This document shows positions 36,614 through 52,429 of a stretch of DNA of 64,000 nt, one piece after another (positions within the stretch are counted from its first letter, which is position 1; each line of letters starts with the position of its first letter). This stretch comes from a bacterium (GTDB lineage: Bacteria; Bdellovibrionota; UBA1018), in the NCBI GenBank assembly GCA_019751945.1, contig JAIEMT010000003.1:34993-98992 (forward strand), read 5' to 3'. The translations under genes and the position numbers were made by a program. The notes below the pieces were generated by a model. That model searched no databases. It saw nothing but the letters and a program-made list of their open reading frames with translations, and was not told the origin of the DNA.

Positions 36614-36688
36614 TGGGGTGTCGACAAGCGGTAAGTCACTGGATTTTGATTCCAGTATTCCTAGGTTCGAATCCTAGCACCCCAGCCA
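36614..36688 (+). tRNA. tRNA-Gln (anticodon TTG)
   Basis: Manual fold: acceptor TGGGGTG/CACCCCA with U1:A72; D-arm GACA-AGCGGTA-AGTC; anticodon stem CTGGA/TCCAG with loop TTTTGAT; T-arm CTAGG-TTCGAAT-CCTAG; discriminator G; CCA encoded. Confidence 0.85.
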
Positions 36689-37259
36689 ACTTTTCATCTC
36701 CTCTTATTTTTATTAGAGTTTTTTCAGGACTTACATTTTTGCGATCAATTGCGATCACCTCAGCCTCCCACTTTCGGTCGGAGACTTTTGTCAGCGCGCT
36801 TGCTTGGCGTTTTGCATACACATACGCTGACTGTGCCGATGAATTGCCAAGAAGCTGCTTTGCAACTTCGAGGTCAGAGGTTTCGTTATAGAGATTTCGA
36901 GTCCCTCCATGCCTCAAAACATGAGTGCCTGTATACGGCAGTCCCGCACTTCTGAAGGCTTGGTCATAGGCGTATTGAATCTGCCTATACTCAAAATGTC
37001 TTCCTCCTGATTCAAAGATCAGTCCTTTGGCTCCTGAAACATGCAAAGCCTCTAAGGCACGGTAGGTCTGTGGAAACATCGGATGTTCCTTAATCCCTTT
37101 ATTGGAATAGGAATTTTTGAAACCTGATTTTACCGCAGACAAGAGCCCCTTCTTTCTGGGCCATGAGACATATCGCACAACTTTGAGTCGAGACCTCTTA
37201 GGGTCGGACTGCAACAAAGTGTCCCGCTTTTTTGTTAACCGGACTTTTGACGCGATCAT
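36636..37259 (-). pseudogene. int: tyrosine recombinase (phage integrase) C-terminal catalytic fragment, separated from its N-terminal part by an IS insertion
   Basis: HVLRHGGTR (HxxR) box and downstream Tyr region; 3' end overlaps the tRNA-Gln 3' end; the first about 13 codons are IS-derived. Confidence 0.7.
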
Positions 37260-37297
37260 TTAAAGGATGATTTAATCTTTTAAACCGCGTCAAAGGA

Positions 37298-37639
37298 GTG
37301 AAGCGAATGGACCAACAAAATCAGAATACCCCACGTAAAAAGTTATCGCCAGACCAGAAGTTTAAAGTCATCAAAGAGCAAATGACGACGAAGACTTCGA
37401 TAAGCGATATTTGCAAAAAGTACGACATTGTTCCGTCGCAGTTTTACAAGTGGCAGGAGAAGTTTCTGAGTGGAGCTTTGGAGGGTTTCAAAAAATCTGA
37501 TGATGGCCCCACCAAGGCAGAACTTCGTAAAATTGATGAGCAGGAAAAAAGAATTCAGAAAATGCAGTCTGCAATCACCGAAATTATCCAGGAAAATATT
37601 GAGTTAAAAAAAAATCTTGGGGCTTCGGGACTTTTGTAG
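37298..37639 (+). CDS. IS3-family transposase OrfA (HTH)
   Basis: Matches IS3/IS911 OrfA pattern (KFKVIKEQMTTKTSISDICKKYDIVPSQFYKWQEKF, leucine-zipper tail); likely ATG at 37307 after GGAG. Confidence 0.8.
   Translation: MKRMDQQNQNTPRKKLSPDQKFKVIKEQMTTKTSISDICKKYDIVPSQFYKWQEKFLSGALEGFKKSDDGPTKAELRKIDEQEKRIQKMQSAITEIIQENIELKKNLGASGLL
37606..37614 (+). other. A9 slippery run, candidate programmed -1 frameshift site for OrfAB fusion
   Basis: A-run at the end of orfA where the orfB frame overlaps; typical of the IS3 family. Confidence 0.5.
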
Positions 37640-37668
37640 AAGTTCCCCCGGCAATCAGACCGCAAATC

Positions 37669-38604
37669 GTGGCTGATGTTGTTTTGCAACAGGATAGGTG
37701 TGAGCTGCAGCTTGAAGATTTGCTGCTTTGGTATGGGGTTAAAAAATCCACGTTTTATGACTGGCAAAAAGAGCCCACGATGGATGCAGAAAAGCCCCCG
37801 TTTGTAAGCGCCGCCTCGGTTCGTCCCGATGAGATTGCAGCAGTGCTGGCATATCGGGATCTTTACCCAGACATCGGGTACCGCAAGTTCACCTGGCAGA
37901 TGGTGGATGCGAACGTAGCGTTTTTATCGGAAAGCAAGGTCTACGATATTTTATCTGCCCACAATCGGCTTCAGGGATGGAACAAAGTCGACAACGGCGA
38001 AACTGGAAAAGAATATCGTCACAAACCCAGGTACGTTCACTATCACTGGCACACGGATATTGCGTACATCAAAGTGGGTGGAATCTTTTATTTTTTGATT
38101 ATGATGTTGGATGGCTACTCCCGGTATCTGCTGGATTGGGAGCTGATGACGGACATGCTTGGCGGGTCAGTTGAAAATTTTGTTCAACGTGTGAAAGAAA
38201 AATATCCACATGCACGGCCACGGCTGATCAACGACAATGGATCTCAGTTTATCAGTCACGATTTTAAACGACTTTTGCAAAAACTGGAAATCCAACAAAT
38301 ATTTACGCGCAGAAACCACCCGCAAACCAACGGGAAGATCGAACGAATGAATGGCACCGTCAAACAAGAAGCGCTTCGTCCCGGTCAACCTTGCGACTTT
38401 AGCGAGGCGTGGGAAATCTTGAACAAGTACAGTTACGAATACAATCACCAACGGCTGCATGCTGGGATCAATTTTTTGCGACCAGCGGATATGTTTTTTG
38501 GGCGTGGTGGGCAGGTGCTCAACGAACGTCGGGAAAAAATCGAAAATGCCCGCGCCGATCGAAAATCGCTCAACCGCGAGGAACGAATGAAAAATCTCCA
38601 CTAA
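37669..38604 (+). CDS. IS3-family transposase OrfB (DDE integrase core)
   Basis: HTDIAY...LIMMLDGYSR...NDNGSQFIS...HPQTNGKIER rve-domain motifs with D, D, E. Confidence 0.8.
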   Translation: MADVVLQQDRCELQLEDLLLWYGVKKSTFYDWQKEPTMDAEKPPFVSAASVRPDEIAAVLAYRDLYPDIGYRKFTWQMVDANVAFLSESKVYDILSAHNRLQGWNKVDNGETGKEYRHKPRYVHYHWHTDIAYIKVGGIFYFLIMMLDGYSRYLLDWELMTDMLGGSVENFVQRVKEKYPHARPRLINDNGSQFISHDFKRLLQKLEIQQIFTRRNHPQTNGKIERMNGTVKQEALRPGQPCDFSEAWEILNKYSYEYNHQRLHAGINFLRPADMFFGRGGQVLNERREKIENARADRKSLNREERMKNLH

Positions 38605-38636
38605 ATTTTTGCGTCAAAAGTCCGGATAGAAAAAAG

Positions 38637-39455
38637 CTAGACAAAAGATACGTCCTCCCAAAAAAGCCCTGCTACCTCAGAAATTCTCAAAGCCTGAAAA
38701 TATTGAACAGTTGCCATTGCCGAAAAGATCTCTCCATTTGGCTGCTCTCGAAGCTTTTCACAAAATCCCGAGAACTCTTCGACGGTAAGATCTCTAGATT
38801 TAGGTTTCGATTCACGGTTCAGCTTAACGGCCTTCTGGTGTCTCTCCTTGATCGGGTACCTGTATCTGGAGTCGTCATAGTACTCGCCATAGTATTTGAG
38901 AATCGTCCCTAATAACGAAAGCTCGTGATCAAATGACTTTCTGCGAACAGATTTCATAAAGGATCCTCTTGGGTCCTTCAAGGAATCAATCCATCGATCT
39001 ATTGCTGCTGAATCAGTTTTGAGAACTGGCAAATCCATCAACTGCTGAAAGTAAAGATTCACAATCTTTTCGTAGGCTACTCTTGTACTTTCCGCGAGCG
39101 TCGGAAATATTCTCGTTTTCCATTCTTCAATCAGCGTACCGAGAACAGGTCCTAAATCAGTTAAAACCCCGTCTGCCTTTATTTGAGTTTCCTGCGAAGC
39201 CTGCCACTTTCTGGCTTCCTCTAAAGTTGAAAAATACTCACTGATACGAATTGGTTTGCCATTAGCATCAGGTTCATACTTTTTAGCTAAATAATACTTT
39301 CCAGAAATTGGAAGAAGGTATTCTTTCCTGTCATTGTTCCAGACATATAAACGAGAGATCCTCGGCGCTCCGATGACTGCTCTATAAATACGATTCTTTC
39401 CTTCGTATTGTTTTGGATTTAGTTTCTTCACGGTTTGCTCCTTTTTTTGAGCCAC
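38637..39455 (-). pseudogene. int: tyrosine recombinase (phage integrase) N-terminal fragment: SAM-like domain plus box I
   Basis: Ends ...ALRISEVAGLFWEDV (box I Arg region) immediately before the IS end; continues in 36636-37259. Confidence 0.7.
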
Positions 39456-39616
39456 TCCGTGACTTCTCTTACCGAAAATCTTACGGCTCTACCGATCTTG
39501 AAATGAGGAAGTCCCTCGTAACGCATCAGTTTACTGATATAGCTGGGACAAACAGACAAGAGTTCGGCAAGCCGCTTCCTGGTTACATAGTGTTGGTTTT
39601 CAAAGAACGGCCCCAT
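39428..39616 (-). CDS. AlpA-family excisionase / phage transcriptional regulator (HTH)
   Basis: 62 aa; RLAELLSVCPSYISKLMRYEGLPHFKIGRAVRFSVREVTEWL matches the AlpA/Xis HTH_17 pattern; sits immediately upstream of int. Confidence 0.7.
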   Translation of the reverse strand: MGPFFENQHYVTRKRLAELLSVCPSYISKLMRYEGLPHFKIGRAVRFSVREVTEWLKKRSKP

Positions 39617-39618: not shown

Positions 39619-40044
39619 TTAGCCACCCTTCTTGTTTTTTTCAAGAGGTATGGTCGCAAAATCCAAGGTAAGTCCAACCCGTCCTCCTTCAAGAAGATAG
39701 TCTATGAGGAGGTTGTCCGGCGGGACCGATTCGCCCTTCCCTTTTAGAGGGCTACCAGAAGGGGGGGCGGGGGTTCTTTTTGGGTCAGGTTTCTCCAACA
39801 ATTTCAACAACAATTCATTCGAGTAACAATATCGACGAGACATTCTAAGCTGCCTCTTAGTTTCCAAAGGAACTTCCAAGTACTGAACCATGAAATCCAG
39901 GCCTGATTTTTTTAAAACAATCTTTTGAGGAAATGGCAGTAGATCAGAAAATTTAGAATCCGCGAGCTTCCTACTCTCGTTAAAAATATAAGCTACAAAA
40001 AGGTCGGGTCCTCTTTTTCTGATAAGACCGTACTTTCCAAACAA
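39619..40044 (-). CDS. hypothetical protein (island-encoded)
   Basis: 141-aa ORF, AT-rich, no recognisable motif; ATG-TGA-coupled to alpA. Confidence 0.3.
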   Translation of the reverse strand: MFGKYGLIRKRGPDLFVAYIFNESRKLADSKFSDLLPFPQKIVLKKSGLDFMVQYLEVPLETKRQLRMSRRYCYSNELLLKLLEKPDPKRTPAPPSGSPLKGKGESVPPDNLLIDYLLEGGRVGLTLDFATIPLEKNKKGG

Positions 40045-40077
40045 CCTCAGATCTTGTGAATTGACGTCGTCTTAAGG

Positions 40078-41533
40078 TCAGTTGAAATTTGAAGTTGAGT
40101 GGTTCACTCTTTCGGCAACTACGCTGTCAGAGAAACTCAACCGGTTGGATCGTAAAATCCGGCCAGACAAGGAACCACTCAACATGTCTATCCAAATATA
40201 TTTAGCCAATAAAAAGCGCAAGCCCCGTCGTCCAGTCGTCGCGATTAGTTGCCAGGAACTGGAGGCGGGACAAGTCCCAGGGTTCGAGCCTGGCGTGATG
40301 ATCGACTCCCAGCACTTGCTCATCTCGACATTGCTACCGCCAGCGGTGAAGGAGTTTCTCGCTCAATGCGAGAGGGAGGTCGCGAGCATCTGCGGAAAGC
40401 CTCACGCTCGTGAGGAGGGACTACTGTCGCGCTGGGGCACCCAGGCGGGATCGATCTATCTGGGAGGCCAGAAAGTCGCAGTGCAAAAGCCGCGCGTCAG
40501 GGGTAGCGAGGGCGAGCACACGCTCTCGACCTACGAGAGGTTTCAAGACCCCGCTCTTTTTGATCAGCAGGTATTCCAGGAGGGGATCCGCCGCGTCAGT
40601 CAGCGCGATTACGAGAAGGGGCTTCCGAAGATTGCTGCGAGCTTTGGAATGAGTAAAAGCAAAGTTTCAAAAAGCTGGGTAAAAGCAACGGAAAATCAGC
40701 TCGAAAAACTTCGTACTCGAAGCCTCAAAGAATTTGGAATCATAGCCGTCTTCATCGACGGCAAACGTTTCTCCAAACTCGGCGCCATCGTCGCGCTGGG
40801 AGTGGGAGCGGATGGGCGAAAACATGTGATCGGGCTTTATCAGAGTTCGACTGAGAACTCGGCTGCCTGCCGGGAACTTCTGGACGATCTGGAGCGGCGT
40901 GGATTGCCCGAAAGTGAGTTGCTGTTTGTCGTCGACGGCGGCAGCGGCTTGAACAAAGCCTTGGATGAAAAATATCAGTTGCACGATCCAAAGCAGAGCC
41001 GGGCCGTGCGAGTCCGTTGCCATATTCACAAATGGCGAAATATCACGGACGTGCTGACGCCGAAACAGAGCGAAGAGGCGTCAGGATTGTTCTGGGCCAT
41101 TCGGGAGGCCAGAGATCTGACTCAAGCCCTGGAGTGTGCGGCCTCACTGGAGCAGCTGCTCGGGAAGTTTAACGCCTCTGCGTTAGCCAGCTTTTTAGAG
41201 GCCAAGAATGACCTCCTGGCGCTTCATCGTCTGGGGCTCTCGGCTGAACTCCGGAAATTTTTCTCTACAACAAACCCGATCGAGAGTTTAAATTCTCTGC
41301 TCGAAGAGGACCTGAGGCGAGTGAAACGTTGGCAGGACTCGGCGCACTTCCAGCGCTGGCTTGCTACGGCATGTTTGCAGAACGAAAAGCGAATGCGACG
41401 GATCCGGGGCTTCCGATCTCTGCCAGCCGTCGTTGTGAGACTACAGTCGTTGTGTAATCAGGAAAAATCCGTTGACAAAGATACTCGAGCTGCGTGATGA
41501 ACTGCGAGCCACTCAACCGAGAGTTTCAACTGA
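40078..41533 (+). mobile_element. IS256-family (Mutator-type) insertion sequence, about 1.46 kb
   Basis: About 28-bp imperfect terminal inverted repeats TCAGTTGAAAYTY...GTTGAGTGG at 40078-40105 and 41506-41533 (rc); GC content higher than flanks; no clear 8-bp TSD. Confidence 0.65.
40082..41497 (+). CDS. IS256-family transposase
   Basis: C-terminal TTNPIESLNSLLEEDLRRVKRW matches the Mutator/IS256 TTNxIExxNxxhRRR signature; the ORF-track start lies within IRL, so the true start is probably internal (e.g. around 40184). Confidence 0.7.
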   Translation: MKFEVEWFTLSATTLSEKLNRLDRKIRPDKEPLNMSIQIYLANKKRKPRRPVVAISCQELEAGQVPGFEPGVMIDSQHLLISTLLPPAVKEFLAQCEREVASICGKPHAREEGLLSRWGTQAGSIYLGGQKVAVQKPRVRGSEGEHTLSTYERFQDPALFDQQVFQEGIRRVSQRDYEKGLPKIAASFGMSKSKVSKSWVKATENQLEKLRTRSLKEFGIIAVFIDGKRFSKLGAIVALGVGADGRKHVIGLYQSSTENSAACRELLDDLERRGLPESELLFVVDGGSGLNKALDEKYQLHDPKQSRAVRVRCHIHKWRNITDVLTPKQSEEASGLFWAIREARDLTQALECAASLEQLLGKFNASALASFLEAKNDLLALHRLGLSAELRKFFSTTNPIESLNSLLEEDLRRVKRWQDSAHFQRWLATACLQNEKRMRRIRGFRSLPAVVVRLQSLCNQEKSVDKDTRAA

Positions 41534-41630
41534 GTGAAGGACAAGGTCTGTGAATTAATTTTATTTTCAACAGCCCTATAGGAGCCAATATACTTAAGAC
41601 TCGTTTTAAAGCCGCTTATTTTTCTGGGTT

Positions 41631-42587
41631 TCATGCAGGCCTCCTTTCGGAGGCTCTTAGACCAAGAAAACGATTAATACGTTTTTTCCAAATCTTATTA
41701 AGATCTATATCTAATTTGCCAATGTAAGGAGCAATCGTCTTCGAAAAGTTACTACTAGAGTTGAATTCCTTTTTCGCAGGAGCAAAACCTATTTCAGCAG
41801 ATCTTTTTAAAAAATGCTGAACTACATGTGAACTCTTCAAACTCTTAAGCTGTACCTGCGACACCTGTTGAAATCTCAACCGCTCAAAAGGACTAATTGT
41901 CTGTAGCTTGTCGACTTCAGACAATGTCTTGATTGGTATTTTTTTTCCGTGAAGCTCAATTTCAATTCTAACCGCGTCAATATGACCGAAATCTGCTGGA
42001 CTATTCTTTGGAATGCAGTCGACGTCCTCTATTGGGACGCCACTTTTTTCGTACAATCTAACTAGGAAGGGCCGGCTTCCCATATAGAGGGTGCGTCCCC
42101 CGTCGCTTGACCACCGCTCGAAAGTTCTACATCCTGGCAAACTAATGCTCTGTGAAATTGTCGGATACGGAATGGCAAGGTTGACGCACAAATCTAATCG
42201 ATCGATCCTACCCTGTTCGATAATTTGACTGGAGAGGGAACCGAAGAGATCGGCGCTCCATTGTTTGAATTGGGAAATCGTCGAGAATTGGGACATGTGA
42301 AACTGGAGTAGACCTGGTGGTAGTGTTCCTCTCCTCGGCTCGAAACTAAAAAATACGTGATGATCATCTAAGTATCCCTCCAAACCATGACCAAGAAGGA
42401 AAACCACGCTTCGATACCATAGTTTTAACTCCAACTCAGTAATGGAACCACCCAAGTCTTGAACAAAATCCCTCGTTTTTTTGATAGCCGTGTTCTCTCT
42501 AAATTTCTCTCTTAGAATATGCAGGTTTTTGAGCGAGCTAGGATGGCGAAAACCGGCAAGTCCAGTGGGTGTGGAGGCAAATCCCAC
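41631..42587 (-). CDS. rep: rolling-circle replication initiator, Rep_trans (pT181 RepC-like) family
   Basis: Collinear matches to RepC motifs: RIDRLDLCVNLAI (cf. FTRLDLAFDFED), TLYMGSRPFLVRLYEK (cf. KYFGVRDSNRFIRIYNK), HIDAVRIEIELHGK (cf. HLWRVEIELKRD); similar length (318 vs 314 aa). Confidence 0.6.
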   Translation of the reverse strand: MGFASTPTGLAGFRHPSSLKNLHILREKFRENTAIKKTRDFVQDLGGSITELELKLWYRSVVFLLGHGLEGYLDDHHVFFSFEPRRGTLPPGLLQFHMSQFSTISQFKQWSADLFGSLSSQIIEQGRIDRLDLCVNLAIPYPTISQSISLPGCRTFERWSSDGGRTLYMGSRPFLVRLYEKSGVPIEDVDCIPKNSPADFGHIDAVRIEIELHGKKIPIKTLSEVDKLQTISPFERLRFQQVSQVQLKSLKSSHVVQHFLKRSAEIGFAPAKKEFNSSSNFSKTIAPYIGKLDIDLNKIWKKRINRFLGLRASERRPA

Positions 42588-42591: not shown

Positions 42592-45276
42592 CTATTGATA
42601 CTCCCTTGAAAGATAACCTAAGAAATTATCGACAGTACGATAAAAAACTAACGGCAAACCCGATGAGTTTAGGAGAAGCTTGGGGTATTGCCCTGCCAAA
42701 GAAGTGAAAGATCCACCGGAAGTGTTCTGATCGAGGTATTCGGCAGTCCAAGCTGCCTCTGTGACTAGCCGAGATTGTAAGGCGAGGCCCTGGAAGGCAG
42801 CTGAATAGTGAGAGATGTAGATTCTTCCTGAAGAGGTCACCTGAATACTCGGTGAAGTCACAATGTTTGAAGACGTTCCGGATGCTGCAACCACTTCTCC
42901 CGTAAATGCACCGGATCCTTGAGAAACACACCCAGCCACAGGTCCAGAGCATCCAACATACCTTATTTGTCCTGCGGTCATATCAAAGTGAGCAATGTGG
43001 GGAGAGTCGCTTGAGTCTAAGACCATTGAAATTCCCTCTCCTCGGGTGTTTCCTGAACTATCTAAAGATAAACAAGTCCATGAATAAGTAGACGATGTTA
43101 ACGCCTCGCTCGCGTAAGCTAGTTTAAGTGCACCATCCGACTGGTATACGATTACTGGTCGTCCAGTCGAAGTTAAAGCAAGGGTGGCATACTTCCCTGC
43201 ATCATTAGCTACGTTCCCGCAGGAACCTGTTCCTGTCATTCCATCGACGCTAAACCTCTTCCATCCCCCGCCGGGAGAAAAACGCGAAAACTTTAAACCA
43301 GTAGCACTGGCATCATAGTAGGCGACCCCTAAAGAAGTGCCTGACGAAGCGACCGAAGGGTATTGCCCTACATTGGCACTCGTGTCATCGACGACGGTGA
43401 CGGAAAATCCGGACTCATCATTCACTGATCTAGCTACATGAAGAGCCTGCGAAGCCGCTAGTCCGTTATAAAATGCGATAACTGGAGAATTATTAGAGTC
43501 ATAGGCTAAGCTCGGATAAGAACCAACGAACTGACCTGCTACACTCTCTGCCATGTTTACCACTGAAATTTGAGAAAAGGTTGGACTCCCAGCCGAGCCC
43601 CCCCTGACACCGTAATAAAGCTTCATATCGCCTGCAGTAGAGTCTTGAAAAAAGTATGTGTATCCTACTGTCCCCGAATTTGATTTTGCTGCCGCAAAAA
43701 CAGGTAAAGCTGTAGTGGGAAATAAGGATACTAAATTGTCGACATAGTCGAGTACAAAAGAACCAGCTGCGCCTCCGTTGGTAATGTCTGCCGCGATGCC
43801 AGAAGAAAGAACAATGTCATTTCCTGTTGCTCCTGCTCCTGCTGCTGGTAGTTGAGCGAAGGAACCATAAAGGGCATCAGAATTAAAATCATAAACAGCC
43901 CCCACTCCCTCAGCGCCTACAGTGGTCGTGGCAATCGTGGTGCCAGTAGCAAGCCATGCGCCAGCCGGCCCCGTCGATTTGTTTGCCAAAATCGTTGTCG
44001 TGCTATCCAAATAAAAAATGAAGTTTAAATTAATTGATGAACTCGAAGAAGCTAGCCTGAAACCGTTTTGCCCTTCATTTGATGCTCCTACCGATAAAGG
44101 TGCTCCCCAGGATCCCGATGCTCCTGTTTGTGAGTTTCCACAAGTTTGCGGAGCAGTTGCGGTGTACAAAGTGTTCGCAGGCGTAGCAGTCGTGTATAAA
44201 CCCACGATGGGGCGCTGAGTTGCTGCATCAATAGTGATGTCCATCCGGGTCGCTGCATTGGTGGTTGTTGTTATTCCTGCGGAAAAGCAGCTGGTTGCAC
44301 CTGTGCACCCATTAGAGAGCGACAAGGGACTCCAGGTCGAGCAGCTCCCGTTCGCATTCAAAGCTGTGCATCGAATTAAATAGGGTTTACCCGACCCAGC
44401 CGCCGCATCTACCGATGGCGTAGCTAAGAGCAACATGCCGTTTGCTGGACACATCACCGCTCCAGCTTGCATTGCACCTTGGGTCAACCCAGTAATGGTA
44501 CCGGCCCCGGAAACGGAGGCCATTACATCAGAGACAGACCAACTACCGGATGTGCTTCTAAATGCGTACTTTATAAAACTGTTTCCCACTAAGGTCTGCG
44601 CATAAAAAGAAAAAGTAAGATGAGGACGATTAGAAGAATCGAAGTTCAGTGTAAGCCCTTTGATTGCATCCACAGTGGCAGTGTTGGCGGCATTTGTGGC
44701 GCCTGCCGTAGCTGACGAAGCAAATGGTACCGTGATAGTCCATTCCCCGCTGGTTGAGCGCTCGGCATATCTCACTTGTTTATTCCCGGATCCGTTGAGA
44801 CTCATGCCATAGACATAGGCAATTGAAGGTCGCCCATCTGTGGTAAATGCGAGGCGAATAATACTCGCAGTTCCAGCGGCAGCAGCATTAGGCGCTCCGA
44901 GACAATAACTTCCTGCTATGCCACACACCACTGTCCCATAGTTGGCGTCCACCAGTTCGATGTTCCATCGTCCAAAAGTATCCAAGTAAGCATATTTGAG
45001 ACCCCCAACTGCTGCGGTTCCCGAGAATGAAGAATTCTTATCGTAGTAGGACACCGCGGGCCGCAGAGAAATCGGGTCGAGAGCCATATCATTTACTCCA
45101 CCGGTAAATGAATTAAAACTAAGAGAAGGTCCCGCCGCTACAATTCGTCGAATATCACTAGTGCCCCCACTATTGGTGGTGTCAGGTACCCCACTTATCT
45201 CAGTCTCGCAACCCAGCAGGAAGAGAACTAGTAGGACCGTCATTCCTGAACGGAAATTATTTTTCTGACTCAACAT
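42592..45276 (-). CDS. large (about 894 aa) Thr/Ser/Gly/Ala-rich surface lipoprotein, probable beta-rich adhesin/fibre
   Basis: Lipobox LLGC after MLSQKNNFRSGMTVLLVLF; very low-complexity Gly/Ala/Ser/Thr composition with repeated S/T-G-S motifs; GAGGGG RBS; 4 nt upstream of rep. Confidence 0.55.
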   Translation of the reverse strand: MLSQKNNFRSGMTVLLVLFLLGCETEISGVPDTTNSGGTSDIRRIVAAGPSLSFNSFTGGVNDMALDPISLRPAVSYYDKNSSFSGTAAVGGLKYAYLDTFGRWNIELVDANYGTVVCGIAGSYCLGAPNAAAAGTASIIRLAFTTDGRPSIAYVYGMSLNGSGNKQVRYAERSTSGEWTITVPFASSATAGATNAANTATVDAIKGLTLNFDSSNRPHLTFSFYAQTLVGNSFIKYAFRSTSGSWSVSDVMASVSGAGTITGLTQGAMQAGAVMCPANGMLLLATPSVDAAAGSGKPYLIRCTALNANGSCSTWSPLSLSNGCTGATSCFSAGITTTTNAATRMDITIDAATQRPIVGLYTTATPANTLYTATAPQTCGNSQTGASGSWGAPLSVGASNEGQNGFRLASSSSSINLNFIFYLDSTTTILANKSTGPAGAWLATGTTIATTTVGAEGVGAVYDFNSDALYGSFAQLPAAGAGATGNDIVLSSGIAADITNGGAAGSFVLDYVDNLVSLFPTTALPVFAAAKSNSGTVGYTYFFQDSTAGDMKLYYGVRGGSAGSPTFSQISVVNMAESVAGQFVGSYPSLAYDSNNSPVIAFYNGLAASQALHVARSVNDESGFSVTVVDDTSANVGQYPSVASSGTSLGVAYYDASATGLKFSRFSPGGGWKRFSVDGMTGTGSCGNVANDAGKYATLALTSTGRPVIVYQSDGALKLAYASEALTSSTYSWTCLSLDSSGNTRGEGISMVLDSSDSPHIAHFDMTAGQIRYVGCSGPVAGCVSQGSGAFTGEVVAASGTSSNIVTSPSIQVTSSGRIYISHYSAAFQGLALQSRLVTEAAWTAEYLDQNTSGGSFTSLAGQYPKLLLNSSGLPLVFYRTVDNFLGYLSREYQ

Positions 45277-45286: not shown

Positions 45287-46090
45287 CTAAAAATTAAAAC
45301 GCACCTCGAATGGAACCGAGATTGGCAAAATTCGTTCGGAGGCTGACTGGGTACCCCTGGAACCTGCACCGGAAAAAAACTTTTGTTCCCATGTCGCGTT
45401 TGCAGATACACCGACCTGAAGGACTTCAGTAATACTGTATGTAAGAGCTACTTCTGGTTCGATAAAATATCCGAAATTATAAAACCCCGTATTTTGGTTC
45501 TTCTCGTAGTGAGAAATTGGGAAGCCAAATGAAATGCGAAACTCAAAACGAAAGTCACTCTTAAGTGAATTTATGTACTCTGTGAGAAAAAGAAGCCTCG
45601 TACTGCTCAGAGAGCTCATGACCTCACTCGGTGACGTTGGGGGGGTTGACTGCTGAAGAAGCTCTGCGCCTAAACCGAGCGATAATTTATCCACCACGGA
45701 AGAGCCACTGTCGGACTGAAAAAGATACCCGCTTAACAAAAAGCGTACTTTGGTGACCTCCTGGTTTACGCTGGACGGAGAAAGGCCACTGACTTTTAAC
45801 GTTACAGCTGTTTTCAGAAAAGTGGCTCGAATATAAGTCCCTGATTCACTCAGACGTCGTCGCAGCTCAGCTCCATAGACAGCGCCCGAACCATTAGGTA
45901 CCGACAAGCTCAGGCCAGAGCTATTCAAAGAATAGTTTAGTAAGCTCATACCCCCGAAAACTCGCGCGATCCACTTAGAGTTTTCGCCTGACAGATTTAG
46001 GCTATCCATATTCACTTTTTGTGGATTCTCTGCCCATGCAACCGTTCCGAAAGCTAAAATTGCGACAAGGCTAGCGGCAATCGCTTTCAT
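45287..46090 (-). CDS. outer-membrane beta-barrel protein
   Basis: Signal peptide MKAIAASLVAILAFGTVAWA; alternating-hydrophobic strands; C-terminal ...VPFEVRFNF with terminal Phe. Confidence 0.5.
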   Translation of the reverse strand: MKAIAASLVAILAFGTVAWAENPQKVNMDSLNLSGENSKWIARVFGGMSLLNYSLNSSGLSLSVPNGSGAVYGAELRRRLSESGTYIRATFLKTAVTLKVSGLSPSSVNQEVTKVRFLLSGYLFQSDSGSSVVDKLSLGLGAELLQQSTPPTSPSEVMSSLSSTRLLFLTEYINSLKSDFRFEFRISFGFPISHYEKNQNTGFYNFGYFIEPEVALTYSITEVLQVGVSANATWEQKFFSGAGSRGTQSASERILPISVPFEVRFNF

Positions 46091-46710
46091 CGGGGAAGCT
46101 CCTGCTCTCTAAATCCTTCGAATAGATAATTCGGATTCTTGGTGGCAGAAGGGCTAGTCTGCAATGAAGGTGGTGGTCCGACTGCAACCGTATTGCTCAA
46201 AGCAGGTCCAAAAGGTGCAAAGGCAACGGTATTTTTCGCTAATCTTTCAGATCCAGGAAGCAATATTTGCCGCGATCTCTCACGGGGTGAGGAATCGCCA
46301 ACTGTAGCAATGTCTCTTTCAGGCTGTGGGGGAACTATTGCCTCGAACTGAGAAGTAGCAGTGTCTAAGAGCCGACGAATTCCGTTTTTGACTTCTTCAA
46401 TTGTAGAAACTTTTAAAACGTACCGAAGCCTCTTTTTTGACAAACCCATTTCCTGGAGCTCTGGAATTCGAAGCTTTGTACCTAACGACACCACATCAGG
46501 ACTAGTAAGTCTATTTTTGTTTGCATCATAAATCTCACGCCAAAGTTGATGCGTTCCAAAAATACGATACGAAAAAGTTGCCAGTGTTTCGCCCGAAAGG
46601 ATGGTCTCCTCACGTACGGTGTCGGCGGAGTATCCAAGTTCTAAAAAAAAGAAAAAAGCAAACATTACCCAAATACAAATACGCATCCATTTACCGATCA
46701 TTAGGGGCAC
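46087..46710 (-). CDS. LysM domain-containing secreted protein
   Basis: TVREETILSGETLATFSYRIFGTHQLWREIYDANKNRLTSPDVVSLGTKLRIPEL is a canonical LysM; N-terminal TM/signal; Pro-rich C-terminus. Confidence 0.65.
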   Translation of the reverse strand: MPLMIGKWMRICIWVMFAFFFFLELGYSADTVREETILSGETLATFSYRIFGTHQLWREIYDANKNRLTSPDVVSLGTKLRIPELQEMGLSKKRLRYVLKVSTIEEVKNGIRRLLDTATSQFEAIVPPQPERDIATVGDSSPRERSRQILLPGSERLAKNTVAFAPFGPALSNTVAVGPPPSLQTSPSATKNPNYLFEGFREQELPR

Positions 46711-48169
46711 CTCCTAATGATCCAGCAAGCTTGCGTTTTAGTGAGTTCAGTTTTCTCGATGTCGATAACTCTAGGTGCGTTGGAACCTTGGCTCGTTCTA
46801 AAATGCTGATAGCCTCGTTAACTTTTCCAGTTTTTTCCATTAATAGTGCCAGGTTGACGCTCGCCTTAGGTCCAAACTCGGCATGATTCACTATTTTTCG
46901 GTATCTCGCTTCTGCTTCTTCATTTGCACCGGCAGATTCTAGAGTTAGAGCCAAATTAAAAGAGATAACAGGGTTCTCAGGATATCTTTTCTCAGCACCA
47001 AGGAGAATTTCAGCCGATTCTTTATATTTTTTCTGTTGATAAAATGTAATCGCTTTAAGGACAGCCACCTCGGGGTCAGTCTCTTCACTGGTTCTTATTT
47101 TCTTAATTTTATCGTAGGCCTGTTCGGGCAGATTGAAAGACAAGTAAAGTTTTGCCAATGCAATTGAGGCCCAGGACTGGTCCGGAGCCCTCTCATTATA
47201 AACAGCAACTAAGGAACCCGCTGCCTCCAGCTTTTTTTGGCTGATATAAAGATCAAATAGCAATCGGGTCGCCTGGTCAGAGGCAGGTTCTATTTTCAAC
47301 ACCTCTCGCAATGAATCTTCGGCTTTGTCGGGTTGCTTCAACTGAAGGTAAATCTCTGCTAAGCGCAAGCGCGGACTAGTTATCAAAGGTTCCAGTTCAA
47401 CAATTTTCGTTCCAACAGTTTGCGCTTCGCCTAAGCGTCCCAATGCCACCAATGCTTCCATCTTCCCATTCCAACCAGCCAAATTGGAGGGGTGGCTCGT
47501 CACGATACGTTCGAAAATGCGAAGACTTTCTTTTGCCTGATGGGTTTTAAGGTAAATATTTCCCAGACTTTCAAGTGCGGCTAAATTGTTGGGATCAGAT
47601 AAAAGCACTCGTAAGTAATCACTAATGGCGAATGTGGTCTTGCCCAACGCCTCGGCATTCCTAGCCGCTAAAAGGATTAAGTCTAAACTCTTACCTTTCT
47701 GTTTGCGTGAAGCCAAGAGTTCTTCAAGTTCAATATGTCTTGATAAACTGAAGAGGAGCTCGGCCCGTAGGATAAGAGCCTCTGGGTAGTCCCCCCGCAA
47801 CTTTTCAGCACGGCTTACTTCGACAAGAGCATCTTCCGATTTTCCGAAAGCCTTTAGACACTTGGCTTTAAGAAACCGTGCCTCTGCCCTAAACGGATTC
47901 TGATCTTCCAATAACTCATTGACCATAGCCAGAGCTTGATCTGGGTTGCCTACCGCTAATAGTACGCGAACCTGGCCTGTAATCGCTTCTTCCCGATACT
48001 CGCTTCTCTGAGCGAGCCGACGGTAAATTGAAAGAGCTGTGCGGAAATCATTGGAGCGTTCGGCGCTCTTAGCCAAAGAAATGTAATCAACGACGTCGAT
48101 ACCCTGCGCCCTTGGCTCTCCAATAAAAATTAAGCTAAATAAGCAAAGGACCCTAATGCAGTTCCCCAT
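46691..48169 (-). CDS. tetratricopeptide-repeat (TPR) protein, secreted
   Basis: Signal peptide then more than 10 consecutive TPR-like 34-aa helical repeats (A/L/Y-rich, W-LG-Y pattern). Confidence 0.7.
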   Translation of the reverse strand: MGNCIRVLCLFSLIFIGEPRAQGIDVVDYISLAKSAERSNDFRTALSIYRRLAQRSEYREEAITGQVRVLLAVGNPDQALAMVNELLEDQNPFRAEARFLKAKCLKAFGKSEDALVEVSRAEKLRGDYPEALILRAELLFSLSRHIELEELLASRKQKGKSLDLILLAARNAEALGKTTFAISDYLRVLLSDPNNLAALESLGNIYLKTHQAKESLRIFERIVTSHPSNLAGWNGKMEALVALGRLGEAQTVGTKIVELEPLITSPRLRLAEIYLQLKQPDKAEDSLREVLKIEPASDQATRLLFDLYISQKKLEAAGSLVAVYNERAPDQSWASIALAKLYLSFNLPEQAYDKIKKIRTSEETDPEVAVLKAITFYQQKKYKESAEILLGAEKRYPENPVISFNLALTLESAGANEEAEARYRKIVNHAEFGPKASVNLALLMEKTGKVNEAISILERAKVPTHLELSTSRKLNSLKRKLAGSLGGAPNDR

Positions 48170-48265: not shown

Positions 48266-49303
48266 CTAATTTGTAGAAACCATCATACTCGTTACGCAAC
48301 GAGTATAAATTTGGGACGGGATATACGGACTAGTTCCAACGCGAGTTAAGGCGCCCGAGGCATAAGTAAACTTTTCAATGGTATTCGAGGTACTCAACGC
48401 ATTCGCGACATAGACATTGCCGGATGACGAATCAAGAGCCATAGCGGAGGGACCATTGATGATGGTCGAGTCCGAAAATGCAACTGCGGTATTAGAGATC
48501 GCGTTAGTCGTCGGATTGATGTCGTAAGAGTAAACATAATTTGATCCTGCAGTCGTGCTTCCATAGGCAACCAGTATTTTTCCGCTCGTATGCATCATGA
48601 TCCCAGTGGGCAGAGCCGTAGTACTAGGAGCCGTTTGCGAGGAGAGACAATCAGCAGACACGCTGTATCCGGTGGCTGCAATGACACCAAATTTGTTGTT
48701 CGGAGTTGCTGCCGCGTGGGCGTAGAGAATCTTTCCATTTGAGAGCGTGGTCATGCTGGAGATTAATGTGGTCGAGGTGGCACAGGAACCTGCCGGTGCG
48801 CTAACAAAAGGATTGGCCCCAGAGGTGATGCGAGATTTGTTAGAAGAAAATTTCTCAAGAGCCGTACCTTTGCTAACCAATAAACCTCCATCCGGCGACA
48901 TAAATATGCCTCGAAGCTGTGCGCTCATGGCCGTACTATTCACCAAATAGGTCGTTACCGTGTTGTAATAGGTCTTATCTACAAGATCAATTCTGCGACC
49001 ACTTGCGTTTTCAACCAAAACCAAAATTTGAGATGAGCTATAGTTGACCATGCCCACTGGCGAGTCGGATGGAGAAAATGAGTTGTAATCTACCAGTAGA
49101 GTATCATAGGCCCCCGTGGCCAAATCAAACTTAGTAATCGTGTTAGAGGCAGTGCTCACGGCGACGCCTCCACCGTAACAGGTCCCGCTTGCGACGTAGA
49201 GGAATGGGCCACTGGTTCCGGAAGGGGTGAGTACGTCCAAATTACCGCAGCTAAAGGCGACAGAACTAAGAGTCAAAACCAAAAAAAATCTTGACCTGGG
49301 CAT
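48266..49303 (-). CDS. lipoprotein, Ser/Thr-rich, probable beta-propeller-like repeats
   Basis: Lipobox AFSCG after MPRSRFFLVLTLSSV; repeated hydrophobic-strand/S-T-G segments; first gene of the five-gene minus-strand operon; the ORF-track start at 49321 is probably too far upstream. Confidence 0.45.
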   Translation of the reverse strand: MPRSRFFLVLTLSSVAFSCGNLDVLTPSGTSGPFLYVASGTCYGGGVAVSTASNTITKFDLATGAYDTLLVDYNSFSPSDSPVGMVNYSSSQILVLVENASGRRIDLVDKTYYNTVTTYLVNSTAMSAQLRGIFMSPDGGLLVSKGTALEKFSSNKSRITSGANPFVSAPAGSCATSTTLISSMTTLSNGKILYAHAAATPNNKFGVIAATGYSVSADCLSSQTAPSTTALPTGIMMHTSGKILVAYGSTTAGSNYVYSYDINPTTNAISNTAVAFSDSTIINGPSAMALDSSSGNVYVANALSTSNTIEKFTYASGALTRVGTSPYIPSQIYTRCVTSMMVSTN

Positions 49304-49492
49304 TTTACTTCCTCCGCGCATTTCGATACCACCAATATTATATCGTAATTATTTAGTTAATAGTTAAGGGCGGAATACGACATAGGGCGTTATATCTCTC
49401 ATAACAGCTTGTTAAATATTCTAAATGTAATAAATTGTTAACCTTTTGTTTTTTGTCAACTCACAAGTTCGTTCTGCCGAACGGTAATAGTA

Positions 49493-50098
49493 ATGAGGTG
49501 TCTTCAAACTCTCCCGTTATTGGTGTCCGCTGTTCTCGTGACGCTGTGTCCCGTTATGGGTTTTGCATTTACCAAAGAGCGGGCTGCGGCCATCGTGATG
49601 GGCGGAGCAACTTTTTACGGCGGAGGAACAACTGGTAGTTTAGCGGGAACGACAGGTTTTTCGTTTAGCCTGCAGGCGCAGCCCAAAAAAGGACTTCTCC
49701 GCCCCACTTTAGGAATATTTGGCGAAGCCGCTTCTGGCGTAGCTCCAATCTCTGGCACTCAGACTTCCTACAGCCTCTATGGAGGGGGATTCGCAGTTGG
49801 CGTGCAAATTTCTCCCTTCGCAGAAGGAAACATTACTCCTTACATTTCTGCAGACGGAATTTTGGGATGGAACTTACTCAAACTCGGAAGCAGTTCGACG
49901 ACGACCAATAACACGAATTCCCTGATGTATGGCTACGTCATTGGAGCAGGCGCAGATATTCGGTTAGCGCGAACCAAAGGAAATGCGATTCGATTGCAAA
50001 CTGGTTACCTTTACAAAGTTGGCAGATTAGCCGGGATTAATAGTTTTGCGATCCAGGGATTTGTCGTTTCCATCGGGTACTGCTTCTCGCCTCAATGA
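49493..50098 (+). CDS. small outer-membrane beta-barrel protein (OmpW/OmpA-N-like)
   Basis: Signal peptide; Gly/Thr-rich amphipathic strands; C-terminal ...SIGYCFSPQ; divergent from the island operon across an AT-rich promoter region. Confidence 0.5.
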   Translation: MRCLQTLPLLVSAVLVTLCPVMGFAFTKERAAAIVMGGATFYGGGTTGSLAGTTGFSFSLQAQPKKGLLRPTLGIFGEAASGVAPISGTQTSYSLYGGGFAVGVQISPFAEGNITPYISADGILGWNLLKLGSSSTTTNNTNSLMYGYVIGAGADIRLARTKGNAIRLQTGYLYKVGRLAGINSFAIQGFVVSIGYCFSPQ

Positions 50099-50505: not shown

Positions 50506-50805
50506 TCACGCGGCTCTTATTTTGACGTGCTTGGCGAGAATCTCATTGATGAGCGATTGATAGCCCGTGCGCTTCTCTTTGGCCTCACGGCGAATACCCT
50601 TAAGTGTTTCCTGGTCAATTCTCACGGCGATAAGTTTTCGCGGCGCGCTCCCAAGTAGGGGGCGACCCAAGCGCTTCATTGCATCAAGCTGCTTCCCGGA
50701 TAGTTCCGGAATGTCCGAAAAATCGATCTTACGATCGAGGATAGACTTTGCGCTCTTTTTTGCTGGCACACCGCGAGCTGATGATGCGGAATTTTTCTTT
50801 GCCAT
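50506..50805 (-). CDS. brnA: BrnA antitoxin (RHH/CopG-like) of type II BrnT/BrnA toxin-antitoxin system
   Basis: IDFSDIPELS...GRP...KLIAVRIDQETLKGIRREAKEKRTGYQSLINEIL matches the BrnA consensus. Confidence 0.65.
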   Translation of the reverse strand: MAKKNSASSARGVPAKKSAKSILDRKIDFSDIPELSGKQLDAMKRLGRPLLGSAPRKLIAVRIDQETLKGIRREAKEKRTGYQSLINEILAKHVKIRAA

Positions 50806-50977
50806 CTTTGCTTCTCCTCACTGTAAAAATAAAAGTCAGAATTCGACCTCGCTCTGACTTCGCGATTGCAACATACCGGTCTTCTGATTTTGAGTGAGAG
50901 CAGCTCATCGTCTCTTCAAAGCTCACGCCATGCTTTTCAAGGTTCCTGGCTGCTTTACGACTTTCCCGCTCAAACAC
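50729..50977 (-). CDS. brnT: BrnT toxin (DUF497 ribonuclease)
   Basis: ARNLEKHGVSFEE...HSKSEDRYVAIA...RILTFIFTVRR...FRIISSRCASKKERKVY matches the BrnT consensus; 82 aa. Confidence 0.65.
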   Translation of the reverse strand: MFERESRKAARNLEKHGVSFEETMSCSHSKSEDRYVAIAKSERGRILTFIFTVRRSKDGKEKFRIISSRCASKKERKVYPRS

Positions 50978-51114
50978 CTATTTAAGTATATACAAAAGTA
51001 GAGCATTCGCAAGAAGAAGTAGGTCATTGCCTAAAACAGGGCAGCCGAATAGGCCTTGCATGACGCAAATGCTTGTCCTACTGGGCCGATGTAAAGGGAA
51101 TTTGTCTTGTGTCG

Positions 51115-51834
51115 TCAGCCACGAATGAGAAAGTTTAGCCCCGCAAGAACTAGGGTCGCTTCCACGAGAACGAGGAAAACACGCTCTGGCAGCTTCTTTA
51201 CGATTTGCTTCCCAAGCCAGGATCCCAGAATCATGACCGGTCCCACAGCGAGCCCGACATAGACCATCTTCTCGGTCAGAAGTGAGGTCTGATGGTAGGC
51301 GGCGATCTTAAAGACGTGCATGACAACGGTGCAGAGGGCTTCGGTCCCAATGAACGCACCTTTTACAAGACCGTAGGCAAGAAAGAACGGCACAATAAAG
51401 GGACCAACACTTCCGACTAGGGCTGAGAGAAAACTAAAGCCTAGTCCAACGCCGATGAATCCCCGTACAGGCATCCTCTTAACCCGCTTGGTTCCAACCC
51501 AGCGCCAAAGGACAGTCAGCAGAAGAAATGGCCCGAGGAACCGAATGAGGACAGGAGCGGGAGCTTTTGCGAAGAAAAATCCGCCGATCAGAGCACTAGG
51601 AATTGCGCTGACTGAAAAATAGCGGACCACTTTCCAATCCAGCTCGTGGCGGTGAAAGAAAACTCGGCTTCCGTTTCCAATGAGTTGAGCGACCGCGAGG
51701 ATCGGAATGGCGTCCCTAACGCCGAAAATCGCAACGAGAACCGGAAGAAGAACAGCAGCGCCGCCGAACCCAGTGATGCCAGCAAGCGTGGAACCACCGA
51801 GCGCAGCTCCGGCAAGGAGAATCCACTGCATCAT
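51115..51834 (-). CDS. TauE/SafE family sulfite/anion exporter
   Basis: 239 aa, 8 TM, two internal repeats with Gly-rich helices typical of TauE/SafE. Confidence 0.75.
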   Translation of the reverse strand: MMQWILLAGAALGGSTLAGITGFGGAAVLLPVLVAIFGVRDAIPILAVAQLIGNGSRVFFHRHELDWKVVRYFSVSAIPSALIGGFFFAKAPAPVLIRFLGPFLLLTVLWRWVGTKRVKRMPVRGFIGVGLGFSFLSALVGSVGPFIVPFFLAYGLVKGAFIGTEALCTVVMHVFKIAAYHQTSLLTEKMVYVGLAVGPVMILGSWLGKQIVKKLPERVFLVLVEATLVLAGLNFLIRG

Positions 51835-52203
51835 GCGTTGCCCACTCGTATCGTTACAGTCTGAAGGTCTTCCAAGGATTTTGAGATCAAATCTTTATCC
51901 GACGACTTTTTATCAAGCGGAGTTCCTTACTTCTGAAAGGGGATGTTGCTCCTTCAAGGGCTTCGTCACAAATTTTCTTCACTGCTATTTCCTGACATTT
52001 CGCGAGTTGTCCTATTTTGCTGAAAATTTAAAAAAACCCCACGAAATAGGCGTTGTTTAACGCAGGTGCTTGTCCTACAATAGGACAAAACGGGCAGTAA
52101 GTAATGGATTTTATTCAGTCCCAATCAAACCAGCCATTTAAAAAAGATTAAACTCCCTCAAAATAAAAAATCTCCGACAAACCAATCGACTATTCGAAGC
52201 ACG

Positions 52204-52223
52204 CTGGGGTGCTAGGATTCGAA
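52204..52223 (-). repeat. exact 20-bp inverted copy of the tRNA-Gln 3' end (TTCGAATCCTAGCACCCCAG)
   Basis: 52204-52223 is the reverse complement of 36666-36685; candidate att remnant or island boundary; pairs 13/14 with 52360-52373. Confidence 0.7.
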
Positions 52224-52429
52224 GCGAAGGACGCGACCCGCGGACGACTCCAAAGGAGTCGGACGAGGGGCGGCGCAGTGAGGGAGCGTGAAGCGACCGA
52301 ACGTAGTGGCCGAATCTCGCCCGAGGCACGCGCGTGCCGAGCCTCTAAGCAAGAAGACAAATCCTAGCCCCCCTTGTCCTCCATTGCCTTTGTTTGCTTT
52401 TCTAAGCAAAAAATTGAATCTGATATACT

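Follow-up and report, generated by a model that had tools for sequence, protein, structure and literature searches.

A probably immobilised and rearranged integrative element with a divergent Rep_trans-fold protein at a tRNA-Gln gene of an uncultured bacterium

A tyrosine integrase, an excisionase, and a Rep_trans protein, often accompanied by a toxin-antitoxin pair, occur together in many streptococcal integrative mobilisable elements (IMEs) and in the ICESt3/Tn916/ICEBs1 superfamily of integrative and conjugative elements (ICEs) (PMC5704250, PMC6499999, PMC7563843). The Rep_trans protein is the relaxase of these elements, and in Tn916 and ICEBs1 it also starts rolling-circle replication of the excised circle (PMC5704250, PMC6499999, PMC7563843). 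The motif I Asp, the motif III Tyr-x-Lys, and the motif IV Glu are essential for nicking in RelSt3, Rep_trans, and MOBT proteins (PMC6499999). Here we describe a region with a related gene set at 36.7-52.4 kb of a 64,000-nucleotide stretch (the window; contig JAIEMT010000003.1, positions 34,993 to 98,992, assembly GCA_019751945.1) from a bacterium that is listed under Bdellovibrionota (UBA1018) in GTDB, a placement that we could not confirm, and that is known from metagenomes only. An earlier reading of the same DNA made without database searches (the sequence-only reading) took the region for a rolling-circle-replicating integrative element of a rarely described class. We read it, with a probability of roughly 0.75, as what is left of an integrative element that reached the 3' end of tRNA-Gln through tyrosine-integrase recombination and has since been immobilised and rearranged. 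A working element is not what is found: the integrase gene (int) is interrupted in all sampled populations, an IS256 insertion sequence parts the Rep_trans-fold gene (rep) from the excisionase (xis) and integrase genes, the exact attachment (att) copy is inverted, the pair of arm-type sites is incomplete, and the motif lying upstream of rep in relatives is absent. Nor is the class rarely described, since integrase, excisionase, and Rep_trans together are well documented for Firmicutes ICEs and IMEs (PMC6499999, PMC5704250). What is unusual here is the host lineage and the divergence of the Rep subfamily.

The window element shares with IMESag-rpsI, IME_Sga2069_rpmE, ICESt3, Tn916, and ICEBs1 a tyrosine integrase, an excisionase, and a Rep_trans nickase with the Asp, Tyr-x-Lys, and Glu motifs, and those elements likewise often carry a toxin-antitoxin pair and cargo and integrate at the 3' end of a conserved gene. 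We infer that it works like them. The differences should be noted. The host is a Gram-negative-type uncultured lineage, the cargo encoding outer-membrane-like proteins, whereas the described elements belong to Firmicutes. The window Rep is only about 12-15% identical to solved Rep_trans proteins, is sub-threshold in Pfam, and has no match to a helix-turn-helix (HTH) domain. Neither a coupling protein nor a type IV secretion system (T4SS) accompanies it, the target is a tRNA and not a ribosomal-protein gene or oriT, and the copy is inactivated.

Split integrase and insertion sequences beside tRNA-Gln

The backbone of the element, from the tRNA to rep, contains the following features.

36614-36688, plus strand: tRNA-Gln(ttg), the integration target (ARAGORN; Rfam RF00005, 61.9 bits)
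36636-37219, minus strand: tyrosine integrase, C-terminal fragment (Phage_integrase, PHROG integrase families; catalytic H-x-x-R-H...Y region)
36739-36757, plus strand: tandem motif TTGCGATCA-A-TTGCGATCA, inside the integrase 3' end and beside the tRNA
37220-38643, plus strand: IS3-family insertion sequence (orfA 37298-37639, orfB 37669-38604)
38644-39455 (open reading frame (ORF) 38637-39455), minus strand: tyrosine integrase, N-terminal fragment (PHROG phrog_1, E = 1.6e-18)
39428-39616, minus strand: excisionase-family HTH protein, 62 aa (HTH_17, TIGR01764, PHROG excisionase families)
39619-40044, minus strand: hypothetical ORF, 141 aa (90 aa in some assemblies), in the slot between rep and xis
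40063-41548, plus strand: IS256-family insertion sequence, between rep and the block of hypothetical ORF, xis, and int
41631-42587, minus strand: divergent Rep_trans-fold nickase, 318 aa, a candidate rolling-circle initiator and/or relaxase

ARAGORN finds tRNA-Gln(ttg) as the sole tRNA in the 64-kb window. As the sequence-only reading had it, a tyrosine integrase gene on the opposite strand overlaps this tRNA (ARAGORN, Rfam, and Phage_integrase at 28.5 bits); the gene adjoins the tRNA and points at its 3' end, and the layout is the same in two related loci, L039 and L041. The minus-strand ORF 36636-37259 reads 53 nt into tRNA-Gln. The integrase is thus present where it had been placed, though this ORF is the C-terminal part only, and the gene is split by the IS3 element at 37220-38643.

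The interrupting element shows every feature of the IS3 family: an orfA with an HTH domain (HTH_Tnp_1, 43.3 bits), an orfB with the DDE-type rve domain (rve 58.6 bits and rve_3 48.8 bits in Pfam), TG...CA ends (terminal inverted repeats TGTC...GACA, TGTCCCGCTTTTTT.../TGTCTAGCTTTTTT...), and a target duplication of the usual 3-4 bp, here the 4 bp AAAG at 37216-37219 and 38644-38647. Excising IS3 together with one AAAG copy in silico gives an in-frame integrase ORF of 463 aa, which aligns free of gaps across the junction with five intact homologues; R257, H369-x-x-R372-H373, and Y404 are invariant in this alignment. An intact integrase, as expected of a mobile island, is not found. The insertion is present in contigs L001-L004, L028, and L029, while L006 stops 30 nt into IS3, so that all metagenome contigs reaching int either carry IS3 or end at its left edge. 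The integrase ORFs of this family enter the tRNA, so that the att core encodes the C-terminal tail of the protein (...GFEP, from the TTCGAA T-loop; window 36636-36700, protein P0154), and this tail would differ between the integrated and excised states.

The tandem motif TTGCGATCA-A-TTGCGATCA could be bound by Int as an arm-type site (P' arm), judging from the 20-nt ACTGGTTGCAAGTGRTTRCA found in both arms of L039, L040, and L041. In each of these loci one ACTGGTTGCAAGTGRTTRCA copy is about 70 nt away from the tRNA, and another is about 115 nt inward of the distal repeat (L039 7679-7698 and 11267-11286; L040 3671-3690 and 7259-7278; L041 429-448, 2485-2504, and 11264-11283). The pattern is as for arm-type sites and makes ACTGGTTGCAAGTGRTTRCA a candidate arm-type binding site of this integrase family. 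The extra copy in L041 adjoins an integrase fragment. A second copy of the TTGCGATCA tandem motif is found nowhere in the window, and there is no second copy of ACTGGTTGCAAGTGRTTRCA in the window either. The second set of arm-type sites appears to be gone from the window element.

The 62-aa protein encoded beside int had been called an AlpA-type excisionase. An excisionase-family HTH it is (HTH_17 36 bits, cut-off 27; TIGR01764 29.2 bits, cut-off 28.8), though the AlpA label is wrong: there is no match to the AlpA family, and HTH_17 is the sole Pfam family returned. Its position makes it a candidate recombination directionality factor. An HTH gene beside int is also present in L035, L037, L038, and L042, and in L041 it is indicated by tblastx similarity only. 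The adjacent 141-aa ORF has no Pfam, PHROG, NCBIfam, or PADLOC match, and the same slot between rep and xis is filled by unrelated small ORFs in L035.

The second insertion sequence confirms that two such elements reside in the island. It encodes a Mutator-type transposase (Transposase_mut 93.5 bits; NF033543 176 bits, cut-off 150) and has the inverted repeats and the 8-9-bp duplication of the IS256 family, here the 8 bp TGTGAATT at 40055-40062 and 41549-41556. Its ends were set by k-mer-length overlaps of the contig ends of L002, L003, L007, L010, and L030. IS256 is active in the population. In three other samples (ERZ1079237, ERZ27314198, and ERR2163669; loci L007, L010, L020, and L030) a second IS256 lies at 48144-48152, in the same orientation as the copy at 40063-41548 and with a 9-bp target duplication. 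In the strains that carry it, rep and the neighbouring envelope-protein genes are bracketed by two IS256 copies in a composite-transposon-like arrangement.

The Rep_trans-fold protein and its relatives

The NCBI record of the 318-aa protein is titled 'replication initiation factor domain-containing protein', and NCBIfam gives no match to it. A word-indexed search found two relatives; when 1.84 billion cluster representatives were scanned in full with HMMER, 195 clusters of the family came up at E <= 1e-3. Four residues (R130, D132, R207, and E209) do not vary across an alignment of 79 members, at least 90% of which have Y179; among the eight closest sequences, Y179-E180-K181 is invariant. Pfam Rep_trans is matched by nine of the 79 members at E <= 0.01, with 1.6e-5 as the best value. 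The family profile reaches RepSTK1 (PDB 4cij) at E = 0.0056, placing RLDxxxD on ITRLDVAVD and the Tyr motif on RFYEKN.

A confident AlphaFold model built with the family alignment (pLDDT 85.9, pTM 0.84) has the two-lobed Rep_trans fold, and its only significant Foldseek matches in the PDB are to staphylococcal RepDE (4cwc and 4cwe; E ~1e-6, probability 1.0). The catalytic Tyr lies in Y-x-K (Y179). D132 (RLDxCxD, motif I) and E209 (RIExE, motif IV) show no variation, and D136 shows very little; the conserved residues correspond to the motif I Asp, the motif III Tyr-x-Lys, and the motif IV Glu. The profile and the predicted structure indicate that the protein is Rep_trans-related and RepC-like at the level of fold and active site, in a distant uncharacterised branch. 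The RepC-like initiator of the sequence-only reading is upheld to this extent, not as a member of the family by Pfam thresholds. The function of Rep would be replication or transfer. Compared with RepC, RepD, and RepDE of the pT181 family and with RepSTK1 (4cwc, 4cwe, 4cij), the window rep is chromosomal and beside xis and int and not on a small plasmid, and no pT181-type origin is recognised in the window.

Tblastn of the protein against 72,556 plasmid records and 50,697 phage records found nothing. No relatives were found on IMG/VR contigs in a search with one of the Rep alignments (A4), and BFVD gave no viral-structure match. A single short locus in JGI data was recovered with A4; two other alignments, A2 and A3, had diverged too far to be of use in scanning for loci.

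Rep is part of the mobile backbone, because its linkage to an integrase recurs in three independent elements, with an HTH gene between in two of them. L035 carries rep, a 74-aa ORF, HTH_17, and a 398-aa tyrosine integrase; L036 carries rep followed by a 381-aa integrase-like protein (phrog_1, E = 3.8e-12); and L042 carries rep, HTH_17, and a tyrosine integrase. All three also encode an HTH_3 regulator that is transcribed divergently, and their cargo is secreted proteins or lipoproteins; phage structural genes and conjugation genes are absent. An inovirus or satellite reading of these elements was rejected, as there is no Walker-A/Zot-like gene and no PHROG structural match. The closest intact integrase (59% identity) is found in L037, and since an HTH_36 protein and a DnaB_C helicase occupy the slot beside xis and int there, the slot is suggested to hold a replication function. 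Phage-inducible chromosomal islands and satellites likewise place int and xis beside a replication gene. Among the relatives, L037 has a helicase-type replication module, and L035, L036, and L042 carry the divergent HTH_3 regulator and small ORFs at the other end. Unlike such islands and satellites, the window element lacks genes for packaging or capsid redirection and any other phage-related ones.

Upstream of rep in L033, L035, L036, and L042, at a distance of 59-76 nt, is a conserved non-coding motif, TATTAYAY-N12-CGTWYTSWSTACGA, that is a candidate origin or nick region. The sites are at about 3300 in L033, 4456 in L035, 5820 in L036, and 2352 in L042, and the Rep proteins of these loci are just 31-50% identical. 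The motif is absent from the window, where rep starts 5 nt past the stop of the 939/894-aa lipoprotein gene. We propose, tentatively and with more doubt than confidence, that Rep represents a deeply divergent Rep_trans branch (about 195 clusters at 50% identity) defining small integrative rolling-circle replicons of uncultured, non-Firmicutes bacteria of Gram-negative type. Such replicons would have the order rep, small ORF, excisionase, integrase, their own origin-like motif TATTAYAY-N12-CGTWYTSWSTACGA, and secreted or lipoprotein cargo, and the window copy would be a dead member.

The distal end and the extent of the island

Copies of the tRNA 3' end are found at both ends of the region.

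36666-36686: att core copy C1, the last 21 encoded nt of tRNA-Gln before the terminal CA (T-loop TTCGAA to ...CCCCAGC)
52203-52223, minus strand: att copy C2, an exact 21-nt copy of the tRNA-Gln 3' end, inverted relative to the tRNA
52224-52359: spacer between C2 and C3, 136 bp, 67% GC
52360-52373, plus strand: degenerate direct copy C3, AATCCTAGCcCCCC, 13/14 identical to the tRNA

C1 and C2 are 100% complementary over 21 nt, a match for which shuffled sequence gives an expectation of zero, and C2 retains the tRNA end minus its last two bases (CA). The inverted copy of the sequence-only reading is therefore exact and one base longer than the 20 bp then given (21 nt at 52203-52223); the direct copy C3 had gone unmentioned. 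C3 is without the terminal AGCCA of the tRNA and so cannot be the original tRNA end. Counting all three, the window has 3 att-like sites against 0.03 expected. It had been feared that the inverted match was a second tRNA gene. This is not so, as ARAGORN and Rfam are blank there and the 5' half of the T-stem is missing from the sequence.

C2 and C3 are able to pair with each other. The resulting 170-bp inverted-repeat unit is not a known RNA, because a Rfam scan at E <= 1 over 35.5-54 kb returned tRNA-Gln alone; neither a tRNA nor a tmRNA matches it, and it occurs only once. We also dropped an interpretation as a tmRNA-like RNA or a minihelix, since the T-stem 5' half is missing and ARAGORN is silent. 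The 136-bp spacer has no RNA family match, no further copy, and no homology to the GC-rich segment beside the orphan repeat of L039.

The related loci show the canonical arrangement. The integrase of L039 (50% identity) abuts tRNA-Pro, and the tRNA 3' end is repeated directly, over 18-19 nt, at a distance of 3.8 kb. In L041, xis and the integrase (52% identity) abut tRNA-Gln(ttg), with a 17-nt direct repeat 11 kb away. The two distal repeats of L039 (7318-7565) are 229 bp apart, with a GC-rich segment and a terminator-like hairpin between them, and are probably the scar of an earlier tandem element. L041 comes from a genuine relative of the window organism, with the same gene order and protein identities of 84% for SpoVG and 73-79% for ClpB. 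On its 384,764-bp contig (JGI 3300076649), a different 11-kb island with an IS66 and a fragment of a second integrase occupies 299-11410; tRNA-Gln is directly beside SpoVG, and a RES-domain gene is just past the distal repeat. The order SpoVG-ClpB-HtrA-DUF1844-T2SSE-GAF is shared with the window, in which the block of tRNA and int is inverted relative to L041 and 11 genes intervene (52.4-58.1 kb, including MotAB).

In classical tRNA islands, with P4-like or other tyrosine integrases, int likewise overlaps the tRNA 3' end, the core extends from the T-loop to the acceptor end, and atypical third-codon-position GC content (GC3) and accumulated insertion sequences are found. The window element differs from them in that its integrase family has its own tandem arm-type motif, in the replication-type module beside xis and int, and in its repeats: a direct repeat of the tRNA 3' end is expected at the distal boundary, whereas here the exact copy is inverted and the direct copy is degenerate (13/14). 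A tyrosine recombinase acting on inverted sites produces inversion, not excision. Since the exact cores are inverted and arm sites are missing, the sequence indicates that the distal end was rearranged after integration, by an inversion or a deletion. The att-like copies place the boundary of some event at 52.2-52.37 kb. Our best guess is that the original attR was flipped by an inversion together with native flank; it is based on the host-like GC3 of the TauE and BrnA genes, described below, and on the order in which C2, on its own strand, is followed by a weak hairpin with a T-run and then by TauE. Repeats common to 47.9-51.2 kb and 52.2-52.4 kb are chance-level 9-mers only.

Beyond rep, the region carries the following genes.

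42592-48169, minus strand: tightly spaced array of four envelope-protein genes, directly upstream of rep
46691-48169, minus strand: TPR protein, first in the array in transcription order (Pfam TPR families)
46087-46710, minus strand: LysM-type protein (NF008399 and PHROG matches)
45287-46090, minus strand: outer-membrane protein (OMP)-like protein with C-terminal Phe, third gene of the array
42592-45276/45411, minus strand: large Ser/Thr/Gly-rich lipoprotein, fourth gene of the array
48266-49321, minus strand: 351-aa lipoprotein with weak NHL/beta-propeller hints, followed on its own strand by a GC-rich terminator-like hairpin and T-run
49493-50098, plus strand: 201-aa OMP-like protein
50506-50805, minus strand: BrnA antitoxin (BrnA_antitoxin 31 bits, cut-off 26.1)
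50729-50977, minus strand: BrnT toxin (BrnT_toxin 52.5 bits, cut-off 34.5)
51115-51834, minus strand: TauE/SafE-family membrane protein (Pfam TauE 110.7 bits)

The envelope-protein array that had been described earlier is thus present, with four genes at 42592-48169; its signal and lipobox sequences were read off the translations. The only PADLOC match, of the TPR protein to 'PrimPol' (E = 2.9e-7), is confined to the TPR stretch and is regarded as spurious. BrnTA and TauE likewise hold up, all above their Pfam cut-offs, with brnT and brnA adjacent. The two ORFs as listed overlap by 77 nt (50729-50805). Gene callers of public assemblies call BrnA and never BrnT, which covers profile positions 3-77 of 77 in Pfam. 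TauE is bracketed by 34-nt direct repeats (51048-51081 and 52045-52078) that are 82% identical; the second continues into a perfect 8-bp palindrome, TTGTCCTA-CAA-TAGGACAA, and a similar CTTGTCCTCC is at 52373, where short-k contigs break. PHROG matches in the island are limited to the integrase, the excisionase, and the LysM domain, with no structural, packaging, or satellite-specific genes, and island proteins have no paralogues elsewhere in the window.

GC3 is 0.37-0.45 (mean 0.417) in int, the hypothetical ORF, rep, and the four-gene array, and 0.552 +/- 0.045 in 47 flank genes (Mann-Whitney p = 2.7e-5). Values are intermediate for the 351-aa lipoprotein (0.497), the 201-aa OMP-like protein (0.47), and BrnT (0.48). 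The atypical composition of a tRNA island is accordingly found in the first group and not in TauE and BrnA. The segment 36.7-48.2 kb is securely foreign. Membership of 48.2-52.2 kb in the island is uncertain, its composition being host-like or intermediate, and TauE may be native flank rather than cargo. The mosaic composition and the 15.6-kb extent of the sequence-only reading are borne out for 36.7-48.2 kb; the shift is weaker or absent in 48.2-52.2 kb, which leaves the far part of that extent uncertain.

Proposed history, alternatives, and implications

In the proposed history, the ancestral backbone would have run on the minus strand from rep through a small ORF, an excisionase-type HTH gene, and the integrase to the tRNA, with the envelope-protein array as ancestral cargo. 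In the intact ancestor, Int and the HTH_17 directionality factor would have recombined a core spanning the T-loop to the tRNA 3' end, assisted by arm-type sites flanking the core on both sides. After excision, the Rep_trans-fold nickase would have cut its cognate origin with the Y-x-K Tyr to start rolling-circle replication of the circle, and it may also have acted as a relaxase for mobilisation. The cycle appears to have been broken here in several places: IS3 splits int, IS256 parts rep from xis and int, rep is fused 5 nt behind the cargo array and is without the upstream motif of its relatives, and the distal end was probably rearranged, with the exact att copy inverted and the second arm-site set gone. 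Mobility would thereby have been lost.

Several observations weigh against this reading. Rep scores 17.7 bits on Pfam Rep_trans (PF02486), below the gathering score of 29.6. Two of the three acidic metal ligands of Rep_trans proteins (motifs N', I, and IV) are assigned and the N-terminal one is not, and no origin or nick site is identified in the window. GC3 is native-looking in TauE (0.562) and BrnA (0.54), the far boundary is without a proper direct repeat, and the left end-point of the proposed inversion is not located. An integrase supplied in trans could still move the element. The empty site that the sequence-only reading had called for is not found: the pattern of tRNA 3' end, 0-30 nt, and right flank is in neither JGI metagenome contigs nor GTDB genomes, and there is no close relative among GTDB representatives. 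With trigger factor as a synteny anchor in GTDB genomes, the best match is 33% identical and has no tRNA-Gln nearby, and a homologue search with the S8 peptidase for a relative's empty site returned its own cluster alone. The contigs 99-100% identical to the window are all island-bearing.

How far the element extends is the point on which another reading comes closest. The element may be only a part of the 15.7 kb (the backbone at 36.7-42.6 kb, or up to about 48.2 kb), with the 351-aa lipoprotein, OMP, BrnTA, and TauE genes of 48.2-52.2 kb being native and brought in by the inversion that flipped attR. We consider this quite possible, at somewhat less than even odds. TauE and BrnA equal the flanks in GC3 and the 351-aa and OMP genes are intermediate; C2 is inverted and leads on its own strand through the hairpin and T-run to TauE, as one would expect past the end of a tRNA; comparison with L041 shows the block of tRNA and int turned round relative to the SpoVG-ClpB flank; and the IS256 insertion at 48144-48152 in other strains is near the composition change. 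However, the left inversion end-point is unmarked by any core-like or repeated sequence, the terminator is weak (not called by the scan, fold z-score 0.14), the element side of C2 is without the expected arm-type motif, and composition alone cannot set a boundary for single short genes. That the island is instead intact in extent (36687-52373) and still excisable, with C3 as attR and the inverted 21-mer as a P-arm accessory site, is very improbable. Contig ends do have the appearance of an alternative allele joining the flanks: in SRR15085121, 36657-52400 is exactly one k=31 contig and the flank contigs stop at 36686 and 52372, and among the Logan k=31 contigs those of the right flank end at 52372 in four samples and those of the left side at 52400 in five, with stops at 36686/36657 in one sample. 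Yet no contig has an uninterrupted integrase, a simple C1xC3 empty junction is at odds with the exact end-points, C3 is without the terminal AGCCA, and longer-k assemblies (Megahit, JGI) read through both break points (L001, L007, L008, L010, and L028). These short-k breaks are a hint of an unseen alternative allele or of a 30-nt repeat elsewhere in the genome, not proof. A little less improbable is that the inverted 21 nt are a decayed second tRNA-Gln, oppositely oriented and unrelated to the element, as the tRNA-Gln of L041 is on the minus strand on the SpoVG side, which is the orientation of C2. Its identity nevertheless ends exactly at the T-loop, where the att cores of this integrase family end, no more tRNA sequence follows beyond C2, the L041 tRNA is directly beside SpoVG whereas 11 genes intervene here, and a decaying gene would not hold 21 perfect bases beside complete loss.

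The role of Rep is the other point to be weighed. The element could be, or have been, integrative and mobilisable, with Rep mainly a MOBT-like relaxase nicking oriT for transfer through the conjugation machinery of a helper; we regard this as rather unlikely. The MOBT relaxases found in ICEs and IMEs belong to Rep_trans and share the Asp, Tyr-x-Lys, and Glu motifs (PMC6499999), and streptococcal IMEs unite a tyrosine integrase, Rep_Trans, and a toxin-antitoxin pair (PMC5704250). The island has no other transfer or replication genes, and the motif upstream of rep in four relatives could be an oriT. On the other hand, MOBT elements have an N-terminal HTH with PF02486 and either a coupling protein with a T4SS or, as IMEs, an oriT, and this combination is not seen. 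No coupling protein or type IV secretion gene is present here or in the contigs of relatives, the HTH typical of RelSt3-type relaxases is undetected in Rep by Pfam or NCBIfam, and the slot in L037 holds DnaB_C helicase, a replication gene. The two roles are, moreover, not exclusive in Tn916 and ICEBs1 (PMC5704250).

An immobilised remnant thus remains our preferred reading, and the region at 36.7-52.4 kb is best regarded as a dead island with two active-looking insertion sequence families rather than as a working replicon. The inverted att copy and the missing arm sites illustrate that delimiting islands by their repeats can mislead after rearrangement. As an island it is of an ordinary type and degraded; a real, if modest, lead comes from the divergent Rep family and from the rep-int module and upstream motif conserved in it. 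The family is sizeable and mostly missed by current domain libraries, and together with the upstream motif it supplies defined sequences with which replication of such islands after their excision could be tested. These observations suggest that elements combining an integrase with a rolling-circle nickase, so far studied in Firmicutes, also occur in little-known lineages of Gram-negative type.

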